Shown piece after piece: positions 67 through 5,986 of a stretch of 6,065 nt of DNA. Each line of letters opens with the position of its first letter. The first letter of the stretch is position 1. A program made the translations under genes and the position numbers. Source of the DNA: a virus (taxonomy: Duplodnaviria > Heunggongvirae > Uroviricota > Caudoviricetes). Where the stretch lies: IMG/VR virus record IMGVR_UViG_638341086_000005. One strand, written 5' to 3'. Below the pieces are notes generated by a model. That model was not told the origin of the DNA and did no database searches. It saw nothing but the letters and a program-made list of their open reading frames with translations.

Positions 67-252
67 TCAGGGCGGACAACAACGCCACGATCTCATCTTT
101 CTTGGGCAATTTTTAAGAAAATCCTCAAGGGCAAATCTTTTTGGCCTTGCTTCCTGTTCATGGTCAGGCATTTCATCCATTTCTCTTAATTTTTTTTCTA
201 CCTGTCTTTCAAGTATGGATAATGCGATTTCCCGTAATTCTTCGTTGTTCAT
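67..252 (-). CDS. hypothetical small protein (61 aa), second gene of leftward regulatory operon
   Basis: Minus-strand ORF with strong SD AGGAG 6-7 nt upstream of ATG (revcomp of 253-270 = ...caggagtagacaATG). Charged, helical-looking N-terminus (MNNEELREIALSILERQVEKKLREM...). Sits 57 nt downstream of the 310..507 gene on the same strand. No family recognised. Confidence 0.5.
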   Translation of the reverse strand: MNNEELREIALSILERQVEKKLREMDEMPDHEQEARPKRFALEDFLKNCPRKMRSWRCCPP

Positions 253-309: not shown

Positions 310-507
310 TTATTCTGATTCTTTGGCCTTCCGGCGCTGTTCATATTTTAATTTGCGTCCACAGGCATCTAAGACCCATGCGGAAAAATTAGCACTAGGA
401 TTAGTTAATTTTTCTTGTTCAACGCTGGCATCAATCCCATCTATAAGCTCATGTGGGAATCGAATATTTTTCTTTGCTGATTTGTTGTTTTTGTTACCGC
501 TAGACAT
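310..507 (-). CDS. YlcI/YnfO-like small DNA-binding protein (RHH-like), putative element regulator
   Basis: Minus-strand ORF, SD GAGGTG 6 nt upstream of ATG (revcomp of 508-525). Motifs NIRFPHELIDGIDA and NFSAWVLDACGRKL resemble, from memory, prophage YlcI/YnfO proteins and the helix-2 region of ribbon-helix-helix regulators. Positioned divergently from the rep operon next to the palindromic operators. Confidence 0.55.
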   Translation of the reverse strand: MSSGNKNNKSAKKNIRFPHELIDGIDASVEQEKLTNPSANFSAWVLDACGRKLKYEQRRKAKESE

Positions 508-534: not shown

Positions 535-614
535 TGGGCGCACACAATACAGTAAAAAAAATGAGATGTTAAGTATTGACATGTGCGCACACATGATTTT
601 AATCTGTGCGCACA
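535..614. promoter_or_regulatory. divergent control region: three TGTGCGCACA palindromic operators overlapping a sigma70-like rightward promoter
   Basis: Perfect 10-bp palindrome TGTGCGCACA at 582-591 and 605-614; 9/10 copy TGGGCGCACA at 535-544. Candidate promoter: -35 TTGACA 576-581, 16-bp spacer that is mostly the palindrome, -10 TTTAAT 598-603; the third palindrome lies at the predicted start site. Lies between divergent genes 310..507(-) and 713..916(+). Confidence 0.55.
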
Positions 615-712
615 GTTTGAGTTTTGTTACTCAAATTAAGCAACGCCCCGCAGTGCTCGCAACACATGCAGGGCGTCTAACCACCAACGATAGCAACAGT
701 ATCGAGGCAGCT

Positions 713-916
713 ATGAGAAATCATACCACACACCCGCAAGGGCGGGACTCGCACAACCTGAATAAATACATCTGGCGTTTTATCGCCCTGAGCACGGCAC
801 AACCGCGCGTGATTACCATTGAGGCCACCAGCGAACAGGAAGCGCGTCAGCAATCTCCTGATGGCTGCGTGATGGTATTCGCCGCCCGTATTCGTCAGGG
901 GGTGTTCCATGCATGA
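713..916 (+). CDS. small protein (67 aa), Icd-like (host cell division inhibitor family) candidate
   Basis: In-frame ATG at 713 inside the spurious-looking long ORF 5..916, with GAGG 5 nt upstream (704-707). Sequence YIWRFIALSTAQPRVITIEATSEQEARQQ...VMVFAARI matches my recollection of Icd-like small proteins found upstream of primase genes in P4-like elements. Family assignment is from memory only. Confidence 0.5.
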   Translation: MRNHTTHPQGRDSHNLNKYIWRFIALSTAQPRVITIEATSEQEARQQSPDGCVMVFAARIRQGVFHA

Positions 917-1229
917 CATGACCAATTACCAGTACCTGATTAATCCGCATTTTAACTGTGAGCATGATATTGCTAAAAAGGTTTATTCCGCTGCGGATGG
1001 GGCTACTGACAATATATCAATGGCTGTTTCGTCAATTGGTAGCCTGATGTGGTATGCGTCAGAAAATAAGGAATATGACGAAAAGGCCATGCGCATTGAT
1101 ATGGGTAATATCGGTTTGTTACTGGCAATGCTTGGACAGTTTGATATTTCGTTACGGTGCACCATTGAAAATGCCACAGATGCATTAAATGCTATAAAGA
1201 AAGCGAATACTGATTTAAATCGGGGATAA
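909..1229 (+). CDS. hypothetical protein (106 aa), AT-rich orphan gene
   Basis: ORF whose ATG (909) overlaps the stop of the upstream gene by 8 nt (ATGCATGA); G-rich SD-like GGGGGTG at 896-902. Visibly more AT-rich than the rep gene. No family recognised. Confidence 0.5.
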   Translation: MHDMTNYQYLINPHFNCEHDIAKKVYSAADGATDNISMAVSSIGSLMWYASENKEYDEKAMRIDMGNIGLLLAMLGQFDISLRCTIENATDALNAIKKANTDLNRG

Positions 1230-1235
1230 ATAATC

Positions 1236-1535
1236 ATGAGAACATATTTATCTGGCTTGACTGCCAGCGGTTATGCACACCCCCAAATTATCCCCGGCGC
1301 TATTTATCTGGATAAGAACGGTAACAGAGTAACGGTAAAAGAACTGATGTTTGACCGTGTGTATTTTATCCGTGATGGCTATTCATTTCTTAGTTCGCTG
1401 AACGTGGAGATCTTTATTAGCAGATTCAGGCGGGAAATCCCGCTTTCCAGAAATAACCATGTGTCATGTATGGATGTTGATAAAAAACTACAGGAACTAA
1501 AAAACATGATTGCCGCGTGGAGAGAGCAGAAATGA
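1236..1535 (+). CDS. hypothetical protein (99 aa), AT-rich orphan gene
   Basis: ORF starting 7 nt after the previous stop. Its stop overlaps the rep start codon (ATGA at 1532-1535), indicating translational coupling into rep. AT-rich. No family recognised. Confidence 0.5.
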   Translation: MRTYLSGLTASGYAHPQIIPGAIYLDKNGNRVTVKELMFDRVYFIRDGYSFLSSLNVEIFISRFRREIPLSRNNHVSCMDVDKKLQELKNMIAAWREQK

Positions 1536-3655
1536 AAAAAGCGCCAAATTTAAAACACCAGCCACGTGACAAAATGACGGAAGTCATCATTTTTGCGGGT
1601 AGTGATGCGTGGGCACATGCGAAGCAGTGGCAGGAACAGGACGGGCGACTGGCTGGCGACAGCGTGCCTCCTGTCTGGCTTGGAGAGCAACAACTTGCCG
1701 AACTGGATAAGCTGCAAATTGTGCCGGAAGGCCGAAAATCAGTACGCATATTCAGGGCCGGACATCTTGAGCCAGTAATGATCAAGGCGATTGGTCAGAA
1801 GCTGGCGGCGGCAGGCGTACAGGATGCAAATTTTTACCCTGATGGAATGCACGGTCAGGAGGTGGAGAACTGGCGCGAATATCTAGCCCGTGAGCGGCAG
1901 AATCTTTCTGATGGTCTGGTTATTGAGTTTCCGGTAAAGAAAAAAGATACCGGAAGCCATAGCGATGACGAATTAAAGCCACGCGTTGAAAGTCGCGCCG
2001 ATGGTGTTTTCTGGGTAACGCCCAAAGTGGATAAGCAGTCAGGCGAAATTATCCGGCCTGAGACGTGGTTATGTTCTCCGCTTGAACTACTGGGAACGGG
2101 GACGATCGGTAAAGAGCATTACCGCGTGATGCGCTGGAAAAAAACCGCAAACCATGAAGTCATCACAATGGCGATCCCGTGTGGTGGTATCGGCGACCGT
2201 GACGGCTGGCGGTTACTTAAAGATCACGGGCTGAACGTGACAACCAACGGCAAATACAGGGCAATCCTGGCGGACTGGATGCAGTTAAGCGGAAGCCATG
2301 AGGAATGGCAGTTAAGCACAACAACGGGCTGGCATTTTGGCGCGTACATCATGCCGGACGGTTCGATCATTGGTGAATCTGAAAAACCGATCCTGTTTAC
2401 CGGAAAAAGCGCCGCGATTAACGGTTATTCCGTGGCGGGCACGGCGGATGGCTGGCGCGACAGCGTGGCGCGTCTGGCTGGCGGTAATGCCTCAATGATG
2501 CTGGGTGTGGCAACGTCACTGGCAGCGCCTTTAATTGGCCTTGTGGGTGCTGACGGCTTCGGGGTGCATCTTTTCGAACAGTCATCGGCAGGTAAGACCA
2601 CCACGCAGAACATCGCATCAAGTTTATGGGGAGAGCCGGACGCGCAGCGGCTGACCTGGTACGGCACGGCGTTAGGTATTGCCAATGAGGCCGAGGCCCA
2701 TAATGACGGGCTTTTACCACTGGATGAGATAGGCCAGGCCGGAAATGCGCGGGAAGTGTCAACGTCTGCTTATACGCTGTTTAACGGTTCAGGGAAATTG
2801 CAGGGGGCGAAGGATGGCGGCAACAGGGAGATCAAACACTGGCGAACGGTGGCAATCAGCACCGGAGAAATGGACGTTGAGACATTCCTCAAAAGTGAGG
2901 GGATAAAAGTTAAGGCGGGGCAGCTTGTCCGACTGCTTAACGTTCCGATGGAAAAAGCCACGAAATTTCACGAATACAGCAACGGTAAGGAACATGCTGA
3001 CGCGTTAAAGGATGCCTGGACAGCAAATCACGGGGCGGCGGGTCGTGAGTGGGTTAAATGGCTGGCAGGCCACCAGCAGGAGGCAAAGGATACGGTAAGG
3101 GAATGCCGCGAACGGTGGCGCAACCTGATACCGGAGAGCTACGGCGAGCAGGTCCACCGCGTGGGTGAACGTTTCGCCATACTGGAGGCCGCGCTTGTGC
3201 TTTCCGGTCATGTAACTGGCTGGGTCGTGCAGGAATGCCGCGACGCGATACAGCATAACTTTAATGCCTGGGTGAAGGAGTTCGGCACGGGTAACAGGGA
3301 ATTTAAACAGATGGTTGAACAGGCTGAGGCGTTTTTGTCGTCGTTTGGGTTTAGCCGCTACCTTCCGTACCCCAATACAGATGAGCGTGATTTACCGATT
3401 AAAGAGCTTGCCGGATACAGAAAAGGGAGCATTCGCAACGAAGATGACGAGATGCGCTATTACACGTTCCCGCACGTGTTTGAGAGTGAGATAGCGAAGG
3501 GATTTAATCCGGCGCATTTTGCGCGTGCCCTGGATGCTGCCGGAATGCTGGAGAAGGGAAGCGATCGCCGATACAAAAAAAAGGCGCTGGGCAAGATTGG
3601 GGGTAAGCAGCATGTTTTTTACGTGCTGATGTTCCAGCCTGATGATGAAGATTAA
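1532..3655 (+). CDS. replication initiator, primase/helicase-like P-loop NTPase (DUF927-type / satellite Pri-Rep-like)
   Basis: Longest ORF in the window. Probable start ATG 1532 (SD GGAGAGAG at 1519-1526) rather than the GTG at 1517. Walker A-like FEQSSAGKTTT (~2575-2607) and Walker B-like LLPLDEIG (~2710-2735). TTTGWHFGAYIMPDGSIIG segment resembles DUF927-type replication proteins. Followed directly by the iteron array, as expected for a cis-acting initiator. Confidence 0.8.
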   Translation: MKKAPNLKHQPRDKMTEVIIFAGSDAWAHAKQWQEQDGRLAGDSVPPVWLGEQQLAELDKLQIVPEGRKSVRIFRAGHLEPVMIKAIGQKLAAAGVQDANFYPDGMHGQEVENWREYLARERQNLSDGLVIEFPVKKKDTGSHSDDELKPRVESRADGVFWVTPKVDKQSGEIIRPETWLCSPLELLGTGTIGKEHYRVMRWKKTANHEVITMAIPCGGIGDRDGWRLLKDHGLNVTTNGKYRAILADWMQLSGSHEEWQLSTTTGWHFGAYIMPDGSIIGESEKPILFTGKSAAINGYSVAGTADGWRDSVARLAGGNASMMLGVATSLAAPLIGLVGADGFGVHLFEQSSAGKTTTQNIASSLWGEPDAQRLTWYGTALGIANEAEAHNDGLLPLDEIGQAGNAREVSTSAYTLFNGSGKLQGAKDGGNREIKHWRTVAISTGEMDVETFLKSEGIKVKAGQLVRLLNVPMEKATKFHEYSNGKEHADALKDAWTANHGAAGREWVKWLAGHQQEAKDTVRECRERWRNLIPESYGEQVHRVGERFAILEAALVLSGHVTGWVVQECRDAIQHNFNAWVKEFGTGNREFKQMVEQAEAFLSSFGFSRYLPYPNTDERDLPIKELAGYRKGSIRNEDDEMRYYTFPHVFESEIAKGFNPAHFARALDAAGMLEKGSDRRYKKKALGKIGGKQHVFYVLMFQPDDED

Positions 3656-3677
3656 TCCCCTGTGTGAGGAAAAAAAT

Positions 3678-3993
3678 TGCGGGTTATGCGGGTTATCCTG
3701 TGTATAAGTGTATTAAGTGCATGAATATAAAGGAAACCAATAACCCGCACGTAACCCGCAAAATGGCATTTATAACCCGCAAAAGCACGATTATAACCCG
3801 CAGGCGAATAACTGAAGTAACACCGGACAGTCATGCGTAACCCGCAGAAAAAACCCCGTTTGCGGGTTATTTTGAGCGTTTTGCGGGTTACGTGGTGAGC
3901 AAATAATAAACAGGGCGTTTTGCAAAATACTGATATAAAAGGATAAAAAATGGTTAGCACGCTAAGATAACCCAATAACCCGCATAACCCGCA
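3678..3993. repeat. iteron array / putative origin of replication (9-mer TAACCCGCA, 11 perfect copies, both orientations) with AT-rich tracts
   Basis: TGCGGGTTA at 3678-3686, 3687-3695, 3861-3869, 3882-3890. Reverse complement TAACCCGCA at 3741-3749, 3752-3760, 3773-3781, 3794-3802, 3838-3846, 3976-3984, 3985-3993, plus degenerate TAACCCAA at 3968-3975. Spacings of 9, 11, 21, 21 and 21 bp are near helical-turn multiples. AT-rich stretches at 3901-3960 and 4001-4013 (TATATATATAAAT) are candidate unwinding elements. No credible coding capacity (only a low-complexity antisense ORF). Confidence 0.75.
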
Positions 3994-5254: not shown

Positions 5255-5986
5255 ATGCCGAGAATAATCGAATTACGCCAGCAGAAAACCGCCATTAAAA
5301 ATCAGATGCGCGACATGCTGGAGAACGCGGAAAAAGAAAACCGCAGCCTTAACGATGCTGAGGGCGCAAAATTTGACGAATTACGCGCTAAAGCTGAATC
5401 CCTCGATAAAGACATTTCCCGCCTTGAAGCCATTGCAGACGAAGAGCGCAGTAAACCAGGCAAAAACAGCCAGACCACTGACCCCGCAGAACTACGCAAC
5501 TACATTCTGACAGGTGAAACCCGCGCATTAAGTACAGGCGTTCCCGCTGATGGTGGTTATACCGTTATCCCCGAACTGAACACCGAAATCATGCGAATGC
5601 TGGCGGATGAGTCCACCATGCGCCGCATCTGTACCGTGAAGAAAATCAGCAGCAACGAGTTTAAGCAGCTTGTTTCCGCTGGCGGTGCGACCGTTAACCA
5701 CGGTGAAGAGGGTAAGACACGCGAACAGACCAGCACCCCGCAGATTAACGAGGTGAGCATTAAGCTGTATCCGGTCTATGCGTACCCGCGCACCACACAG
5801 GAAATCGTGGATTTTTCCGATGTGGACATCCTTTCATGGCTGACGGGTGAGATTGGCGACACCTTCACGGAAACCGAAGAAAGCGATCTGGTTGTGGGCG
5901 ACGGTGACAAAAAGCAAAAGGTTTTTTATCCGTACCCCGTGCAGAGAAGAACGACAAAGAGCGTGATTTTGGTACGTTGCACGTAA
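5255..5986 (+). CDS. major capsid protein, HK97-type (N-terminal ~60%; reading frame interrupted near 5909-5914)
   Basis: ATG 5255 (the track's 5207 start is a GTG inside the hairpin). N-terminal coiled-coil-like delta-domain region (IIELRQQKTAIKNQMRDMLENAEKENRSLNDAEGAKFDELRAKAESLDKDISRLEAI) followed by GGYTVIPELNTEIMRMLADESTMRRICTV, typical of HK97-fold capsid proteins. In-frame product stops at 5986, but the ORF continues in the -1 frame (see next feature). Confidence 0.7.
   Translation: MPRIIELRQQKTAIKNQMRDMLENAEKENRSLNDAEGAKFDELRAKAESLDKDISRLEAIADEERSKPGKNSQTTDPAELRNYILTGETRALSTGVPADGGYTVIPELNTEIMRMLADESTMRRICTVKKISSNEFKQLVSAGGATVNHGEEGKTREQTSTPQINEVSIKLYPVYAYPRTTQEIVDFSDVDILSWLTGEIGDTFTETEESDLVVGDGDKKQKVFYPYPVQRRTTKSVILVRCT

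Follow-up and report, generated by a model that had tools for sequence, protein, structure and literature searches.

We analysed a 6,065-bp stretch of DNA (hereafter the window) from the IMG/VR virus record IMGVR_UViG_638341086_000005, in which two small genes, here called ORF1 and ORF2 (for open reading frame), lie between a gene for an Icd-like protein and the gene for the replication protein (rep). An earlier note on this sequence had presented the two as AT-rich orphans wedged into the operon, and as candidate cargo for helper interference, abortive infection or a toxin/antitoxin-like function. Our comparisons show a different picture, in which the supposed orphan cargo pair turns out to represent two families, each of them definable and recurrent in the early operons of phage-inducible chromosomal islands (PICIs), capsid-forming PICIs (cf-PICIs) and related satellites of Enterobacterales. 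On balance, we lean towards the explanation that both genes encode early regulatory or accessory factors of enterobacterial satellites; the molecular activities that we propose below for each of them are put forward more tentatively.

The window is 99% identical to a 14-kb island of E. coli TOE17, sited between yljB and clpS, which runs from an integrase gene to a terminase gene. This island carries a helix-turn-helix regulator gene, a YlcI/YnfO-family gene, the Icd-like gene, the ORF1-ORF2 pair, rep, ssb, a PerC-family gene and a full set of HK97-type capsid, protease, portal, connector and terminase genes, with no tail or lysis genes. The window also has 96–98% identity, beginning at nt 1491, to the island of E. 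coli EDL933 and Sakai (OI-51, CP-933C, Sp7), which is EcCIEDL933, the prototype described in the paper that defined the cf-PICIs. The features that define a cf-PICI, that is, an integrase with an alpA-type regulator, a rep gene with an iteron origin, packaging genes of its own and a size of about 10–18 kb, were all found; the window itself extends only from the regulators to the capsid gene, and the remaining features were read from the TOE17 island. By its sequence, the window can be assigned to the regulation and replication module of an E. coli cf-PICI of the EcCIEDL933 type, in agreement with the satellite context suggested earlier. We hold the statements on identity and context given in this report with high confidence overall.

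ORF1 and ORF2 follow the Icd-like gene and precede rep on the plus strand (Table 1), and the four genes are joined end to end. The stop codon of the Icd-like gene (914–916) and the start of ORF1 (909) overlap by 8 nt (ATGCATGA), ORF1 and ORF2 are separated by a gap of 6 nt with GGGGA preceding the ORF2 start, and the ORF2 stop and the rep start share the tetranucleotide ATGA (1532–1535). No promoter-like or terminator-like site was found on the plus strand from position 620 to 3655, and the tight embedding in the operon reported for the pair is thus confirmed. The early-operon promoter and its operator are probably located at 576–614, in the divergent intergenic region; besides the two perfect palindromes listed in Table 1, a further TGTGCGCACA copy with one mismatch is present at 535–544, and the pattern search gave three palindrome matches against a chance expectation of 0.28. 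A scan of the window against Rfam at E<=0.1 detected no RNA elements, including C4-like antisense RNA.

The AT-richness of the two genes was likewise borne out, since their GC content is 39.6% (ORF1) and 41.7% (ORF2) against 55.4% for the Icd-like gene, 53.7% for rep, 58.4% for ssb and 51.0% for the capsid gene. Low GC is also seen elsewhere in the window, in the minus-strand genes of the left arm (67–507; 38–40%) and in the origin region (42%). The ratio of non-synonymous to synonymous polymorphism (pN/pS), calculated over six to eight distinct E. coli alleles, was 0.27 for ORF1 and 0.24 for ORF2. Because of these low values, and because homologues with 25–65% identity are present in other genera, ORF1 and ORF2 are real genes under purifying selection and not chance reading frames. 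An 84-aa reading frame lies antisense to ORF1 (983–1237, minus strand); nothing pointed to its being a gene, although no separate test of it was made, and the substitution pattern in this interval fits coding on the plus strand.

Profile searches placed ORF2 in a known family. It matched the Pfam family PF13973 (DUF4222) with 60.2 bits (cut-off 27; E=1.4e-16; residues 17–67) and phrog_285 with E=2.7e-21, so that the earlier statement that neither gene shows a motif of any known family does not hold for ORF2. The DUF4222 protein of the EDL933/Sakai island is RgdR (ECs1581), to which ORF2 is 29% identical across 99 aa in BLASTP (E=7e-12), and the invariant core of the domain (R41, V42, R46, G48, Y49, F60 and F64) is common to both proteins. 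Residues 20–22 of ORF2 are P20-G21-A22, and ORF2 therefore lacks the RGD present at this place in RgdR, a motif from which RgdR takes its name and which influences its activity. The commonest state of these residues in the other aligned family members is PGD; as most members carry it, RGD is particular to the RgdR subfamily.

The position of ORF2 is also shared with its relatives. EcCIEDL933 and EcCICFT073 (the island of E. coli CFT073) each have a 99-aa DUF4222 gene in the identical position, with an ATGA overlap with the rep start, and the DUF4222 gene of Klebsiella shows this overlap too. In IMG/VR contigs having both DUF4222 and a downstream rep, the overlap is ATGA in 75 of 76 cases, the remaining contig (L113) having ATAA. 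Fillol-Salom et al. reported that every E. coli PICI in their analysis encodes RgdR. Taken by sequence and synteny, ORF2 is best classified as a divergent DUF4222 member and the syntenic counterpart of RgdR, and not as an RgdR orthologue in the narrow sense.

RgdR increases the activity of the LEE1 promoter (LEE, locus of enterocyte effacement) and type III secretion, reduces motility and increases Congo-red binding; its binding to DNA is weak and non-specific, and its mechanism is still called unknown in the literature. We see no basis for carrying the LEE phenotype over to ORF2, which probably lacks this effect because the RGD motif is replaced. ORF2 is a basic protein (isoelectric point, pI, 9.6), which is the one indication here in favour of RgdR-like properties. 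Its structure model was poor (mean predicted local distance difference test, pLDDT, 49), because the input alignment held only near-identical and close homologues; we made no fold search with it and used only its secondary structure, which consists of four short strands followed by helices. Profile searches of the PDB with ORF2 found no sequence-related solved structure.

For ORF1 the statement about motifs stands, as no match was found in Pfam, NCBIfam or PADLOC, and the profile searches returned only phrog_15327 (E=2.8e-70), a group of unknown function. A search of a word-indexed database with the single ORF1 sequence retrieved nearly exclusively E. coli proteins with at least 75% identity. 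An exhaustive HMMER search detected relatives of 100–106 aa with 31–65% identity, and the profile made from them gathered 136 clusters from Klebsiella, Raoultella, Erwinia, Kluyvera, Trabulsiella and Phytobacter; Rahnella, Serratia and Gilliamella joined the list when one genome of each species was scanned. The ORF1 family includes proteins of about 100–108 aa from at least ten genera of Enterobacterales and Orbaceae. The term orphan consequently fits neither gene, with ORF2 in the DUF4222/RgdR family and ORF1 in a 136-cluster family that keeps its place in the operon.

ORF1 has a pI of 4.95 (family median 4.6) and a maximum 19-residue hydropathy of 1.46, and no transmembrane-grade segment is present in the family. 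Many members from Klebsiella, Erwinia, Raoultella and E. coli are nevertheless labelled "ubiquinol-cytochrome C reductase" in NCBI and UniRef (for example L006:6001-6321, a Klebsiella locus). We rejected both this name and a membrane location for ORF1, and regard the label as a propagated annotation error, because no NCBIfam or Pfam model stands behind it and the proteins are acidic, of soluble type and without membrane segments. A literature search combining the label with PICI returned nothing relevant.

The AlphaFold model of ORF1, calculated from a 54-sequence alignment, had a pLDDT of 85.8 and comprises a short N-terminal helix and an antiparallel hairpin of two helices (residues 19–51 and 58–105). 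The residues conserved in the family (G39, I43, G44, L46, M47, Y56, D64, M65, G69, A81, N88 and A89) are distributed over both helices and the loop. Foldseek searches with this model gave nothing specific (E>=1 in the PDB, E>=0.39 in BFVD), and the predicted fold is a generic two-helix hairpin; among hairpin proteins, we compared it with the WXG100/EsxA type, TraM, Rop, UvsY and Kil/Gp0.4. In the E. coli subfamily only, a large NB-ARC/TPR protein (P0058) gave a strong match, summed over 13 of its TPR units, to residues 41–85 of ORF1. This candidate was discarded, since the match is inflated by the repeats, no Pfam TPR is detected and the motif is not kept across the family; the model does not support a TPR unit either, residues 58–105 forming one continuous helix with pLDDT above 90.

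Some assemblies call the Icd-like protein and ORF1 as one fused protein (among the records P0002, P0004, P0056, P0015 and P0007). The part shared with ORF1 is confined to its first 26 residues in P0015 and to residues 23–106 in P0007, which indicates recombination breakpoints inside ORF1.

The genomic context of the ORF1 family is conserved. At every locus examined, the element is of satellite size and the ORF1-family gene precedes the replication gene on a common strand, with zero to four other small genes in between. The replication proteins encoded downstream are of several kinds (D5_N/Pox_D5, DUF927 with or without a Toprim extension, and AAA_25), and the position in the operon is kept in satellites of Klebsiella, Trabulsiella, Kluyvera, Erwinia, Serratia and Gilliamella. 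Both families are present in E. coli, Klebsiella (where a single gene separates them) and the viral contigs L174–L179. DUF4222 without the ORF1 family is present in EDL933 and CFT073, and the ORF1 family without DUF4222 in Trabulsiella, Kluyvera, Erwinia, Serratia and Gilliamella. The gene order in L174–L179 (for example L179:3032-6629) is DUF4222 (59–60 aa), Icd-like, ORF1 family, a 71-aa gene and a DUF927 rep; a rule by which DUF4222 always directly precedes rep was dropped, as it is contradicted by these contigs, where DUF4222 lies several genes upstream.

We also took a census of 80 IMG/VR contigs retrieved with the DUF4222 profile. All contigs that have an ORF2-type allele and intact upstream sequence carry ORF1 at a fixed spacing. 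In two contigs, ORF1 is found beside a recombinant DUF4222 gene whose product is 79% identical to RgdR, and the alleles are therefore separable. Because each family occurs without the other, and because of this recombinant allele, ORF1 and ORF2 are not an obligate pair. In E. coli, the pair was detected in 473 of 5,426 complete genomes and was complete in 470 of them, and a tblastn search of deposited phages revealed no occurrence of either gene. The papers on EcCIMP1 and on the cf-PICIs contain nothing on the ORF1 and ORF2 genes.

Outside E. coli, the gene whose stop codon overlaps the start of the ORF1-family gene often belongs to a separate family of 56–65 aa, with 34–42% identity between genera and no Pfam match (members in Table 1). 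These proteins may be partners of the ORF1 family; in the window, the corresponding position is held by the Icd-like gene.

Comparison with other islands by blastn revealed that the pair belongs to a mosaic block. The segment from nt 633 to 1901, which includes promoter sequence, the Icd-like gene, ORF1, ORF2 and the first 123 or so codons of rep, shares 90–94% identity with islands that have a different rep body, and the sequence that EDL933 and CFT073 have in common with the window begins only at nt 1491. The N-terminal domain of Rep thus delimited is 45–88% identical among unrelated bodies, namely DUF927, two "DNA primase family" types and the Klebsiella D5_N/Pox_D5 type. Wherever a rep follows DUF4222 in the 80 contigs, it carries this same N-terminal domain; the bodies were of the type of the E. 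coli L004 primase in about 57 contigs, of the DUF927 type in about 14 and of the CFT073 type in two. DUF4222 was present upstream of seven of nine reps with the N-terminal domain and of none of seven without it, in a sample that is small and phylogenetically non-independent. By these sequence comparisons, Rep is modular, and its N-terminal domain moves with the Icd-ORF1-ORF2 block.

The interval between the Icd-like gene and DUF4222 differs among E. coli islands. It is occupied by ORF1 in 473 genomes, by an EDL933-type trio of small genes in 280 (complete in 147) and by a CFT073-type quartet of small genes in 938 (complete in 256), and the genes of these two alternative sets match no Pfam family. 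Judged by gene content, at least three sets of genes alternate in this E. coli slot, which is polymorphic in the way that the earlier note had suggested looking for. A GC content lower than that of rep recurs in this interval (39–43% in the EDL933 small genes, 38% in the Klebsiella DUF4222 gene), and the ORF1-family genes of other genera have a GC content near that of their hosts. Of the foreign cassette proposed earlier, the distinct composition can be retained and the foreign origin cannot, as both families recur in the same operon across satellites. The E. coli ORF1-ORF2 block is, on compositional and comparative grounds, a distinct and mobile module, and the two families are long-standing residents of the operon and not foreign imports.

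Based on these results, we propose the following roles, for which the timing of expression and both molecular activities are inferred. Transcription would start at the operator-flanked promoter near 576–614 and translation would be coupled from the Icd-like gene through ORF1 and ORF2 to Rep; with a shared promoter and a coupled chain, induction of the island would yield ORF1 and ORF2 along with Rep, and a low basal production is also probable. The DUF4222 proteins are small and basic and consist of a short beta domain and, after it, a C-terminal helix, and ORF2 could, by extension from RgdR, act as a small DNA-associated co-regulator of the early programme of the island. ORF1 would be a soluble acidic hairpin that binds a protein partner, whether from the island, the helper or the host, soon after induction. 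This is suggested by the acidic hairpin itself and by the occupants of the equivalent slots elsewhere, such as epsilon and cnr in P4, Ash and the antirepressor in PICIs and ant in P1.

These roles may be carried one step further, to a version that we consider rather improbable as it stands. DUF4222 proteins might antagonise silencing of the H-NS type and so unlock the AT-rich early region and origin at induction, with ORF1 as a second, undescribed early effector binding a protein of the host or the helper, and the two would form with the Icd-like protein a conserved host-takeover trio of Enterobacterales satellites. The analogy comes from the phenotypes of RgdR (LEE1 de-repression, loss of motility, Congo-red binding and weak DNA binding), which resemble those of an hns-deficient state.

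The most serious rival explanation casts ORF2 as a partner of Rep, an accessory or copy-number factor of replication in the manner of P4 Cnr, binding Rep (perhaps through aa 1–125) and modulating origin binding at the TAACCCGCA iterons. Such a partnership would account for an ATGA coupling to rep that is kept across at least three unrelated rep bodies, for the movement of the Icd-like gene, ORF1, ORF2 and the Rep N-terminal domain (633–1901) as one unit, and for the presence of that domain in every DUF4222-adjacent rep and of DUF4222 upstream of none of the seven reps without it, although the sample of reps is the small and non-independent one mentioned above. P4 provides the precedent, as its alpha gene is directly preceded by a gene of 106 aa and cnr is located between epsilon and alpha; an interaction between Cnr and alpha was reportedly described by Ziegelin et al. 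in 1997. However, hhalign gave a probability of only 0.1% between ORF2 and P4 ORF106, DUF4222 is several genes away from rep in L174–L179, reps with the N-terminal domain and without DUF4222 exist (L012, L017), and the known phenotypes of RgdR concern host transcription and not replication. We consider this explanation unlikely, if worth keeping in view.

A second rival, preferred in the earlier note, sees in the pair, or in ORF1 by itself, a cargo for helper interference or anti-phage action that blocks helper or competing phages. The polymorphism of the slot between the Icd-like gene and DUF4222, the low GC of the E. coli alleles and the uncharacterised state of all the slot genes are what such cargo might look like, and small early satellite proteins can hinder helpers, as do Ppi and Rpp, named in the introduction of the cf-PICI paper. 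The same paper reports, against this, that the helper of the prototype cf-PICI suffers no interference from it. Neither ORF1 nor ORF2 matched PADLOC, and the ORF1-family position is kept in many genera, unlike that of fast-turnover defence cargo. The slot also lies outside the described defence hotspots, since immunity in cf-PICIs is expected to be encoded in variable regions at the flanks of the packaging operon, and the hotspot of P4 is between psu and int according to the survey of P4-like satellites. In a relative from Erwinia sp. S38 (L011, 10945-12238), RexA/RexB are encoded directly downstream of rep and the origin, outside the slot, and hairpins of about 100 aa without an enzymatic domain are atypical as stand-alone defence systems. 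The view of the two genes as wedged accessory, defence or abortive-infection cargo thus found no positive support, and we judge it improbable.

A toxin-antitoxin-like module, with acidic ORF1 (pI 4.95) as antitoxin and basic ORF2 (pI 9.6) as toxin, would suit two small adjacent genes 6 nt apart that are strictly linked in the E. coli contigs with this ORF2 allele, but the comparative data largely refute it and leave it highly improbable, as either family is widely found without the other, ORF1 also stands beside the recombinant RgdR-type allele, RgdR and its homologue C1493 were expressed from plasmids in E. coli without ORF1 and were tolerated, with regulatory and not lethal effects, and neither toxin or antitoxin domains nor a promoter-like site before ORF1 within the operon were found.

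Table 1. Positions of the genes and other features of the window, and of members of the small upstream family at other loci.
Feature	Position	Strand	Description or evidence
Small gene	67-252	-	Left arm
YlcI/YnfO-family gene	310-507	-	Left arm
Candidate promoter/operator	576-614	+	TTGACA at 576-581; perfect TGTGCGCACA palindromes at 582-591 and 605-614
Icd-like gene, 67 aa	713-916	+	Opens the chain; NCBIfam NF033153 phage_ICD_like, E=9.2e-20; RefSeq annotation in relatives
ORF1, 106 aa	909-1229	+	ATG start; phrog_15327
ORF2, 99 aa	1236-1535	+	ATG start; Pfam PF13973 (DUF4222)
Rep N-terminal domain, aa 1-125	1532-1906	+	phrog_2850, unknown function; blastn boundaries, blastp, census
Rep, DUF927 primase-helicase, 707 aa	1532-3655	+	Pfam DUF927, E=1.6e-48; phrog_1139 DNA primase
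Iteron field/origin region	3677-3993		Downstream of rep; 7 direct (A/G)TAACCCGCA and 4 inverted TGCGGGTTA copies
Small gene, then ssb, then PerC-family gene	Downstream of iteron field		
HK97-type capsid gene, start only	Right end of the 6,065-bp window		
Upstream family of 56-65 aa, members	L009:5811-6008; L012:5817-6008; L011:5828-6004; L028:4820-4990		

The repeats downstream of rep fit, by their sequence and arrangement, an iteron origin of the PICI type. In comparison with the TOE17 island, the window is one A short in two A-runs (A6 to A5), at 5908 and 6059. The deletion at 5908 shifts the frame of the major capsid gene, whose reading frame then ends at 5986, and is either a homopolymer sequencing error or the mark of a pseudogene. 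The PerC gene is intact in the window and has an internal stop in TOE17. Satellites that carry the block were also seen inside prophages: in L004 (E. coli 90-3040; 5368-16429) the satellite lies between the halves of a disrupted prophage terminase gene, and in L006 (Klebsiella; 1-12321) between phage capsid and tail genes.

Among known systems, the immI region of P1 resembles the operon in that ant directly follows icd as ORF1 follows the Icd-like gene, although ORF1 is much smaller than Ant; translation of icd and ant is said to be coupled. In EcCIMP1-like PICIs, the primase gene is accompanied by conserved antirepressor and Ash genes. ORF1 showed no similarity to Ant, Ash or the KilA-N/Bro domains. 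The likeness to P4 is positional only. Cnr and epsilon are, like ORF1 and ORF2, small proteins encoded in an early operon just upstream of the primase-helicase gene, and ORF106, which directly precedes alpha, has 106 aa like ORF1; the targets in P4 are the initiator for Cnr and the helper repressor for epsilon. Neither ORF1 nor ORF2 showed any similarity, by sequence or by profile, to cnr or epsilon of P4, and hhalign gave about 0.1% against ORF106 (Cnr/DUF5375) with both profiles.

The kind of element and the DUF4222 family were already known; new are a divergent DUF4222 member and an undescribed, widespread ORF1 family, which, with some 136 clusters and no Pfam entry, is a clean target for functional work and for correction of annotations. 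In addition, the mosaic unit of promoter, Icd-like gene, ORF1, DUF4222 and Rep N-terminal domain, combined with interchangeable Rep bodies, offers a handle on how satellite replication modules are assembled. The closest known relatives of ORF2 are RgdR of EcCIEDL933 and C1493 of EcCICFT073, which agree with it in the DUF4222 domain, the length of 99 aa, the ATGA before rep, the kind of element and the basic character, and differ from it in sequence (29–33% identity) and in having RGD in place of PGA. ORF2 is thereby tied to RgdR, a protein so far studied only as a virulence regulator of enterohaemorrhagic E. coli (EHEC), and never for its part in the life cycle of the satellite that encodes it.

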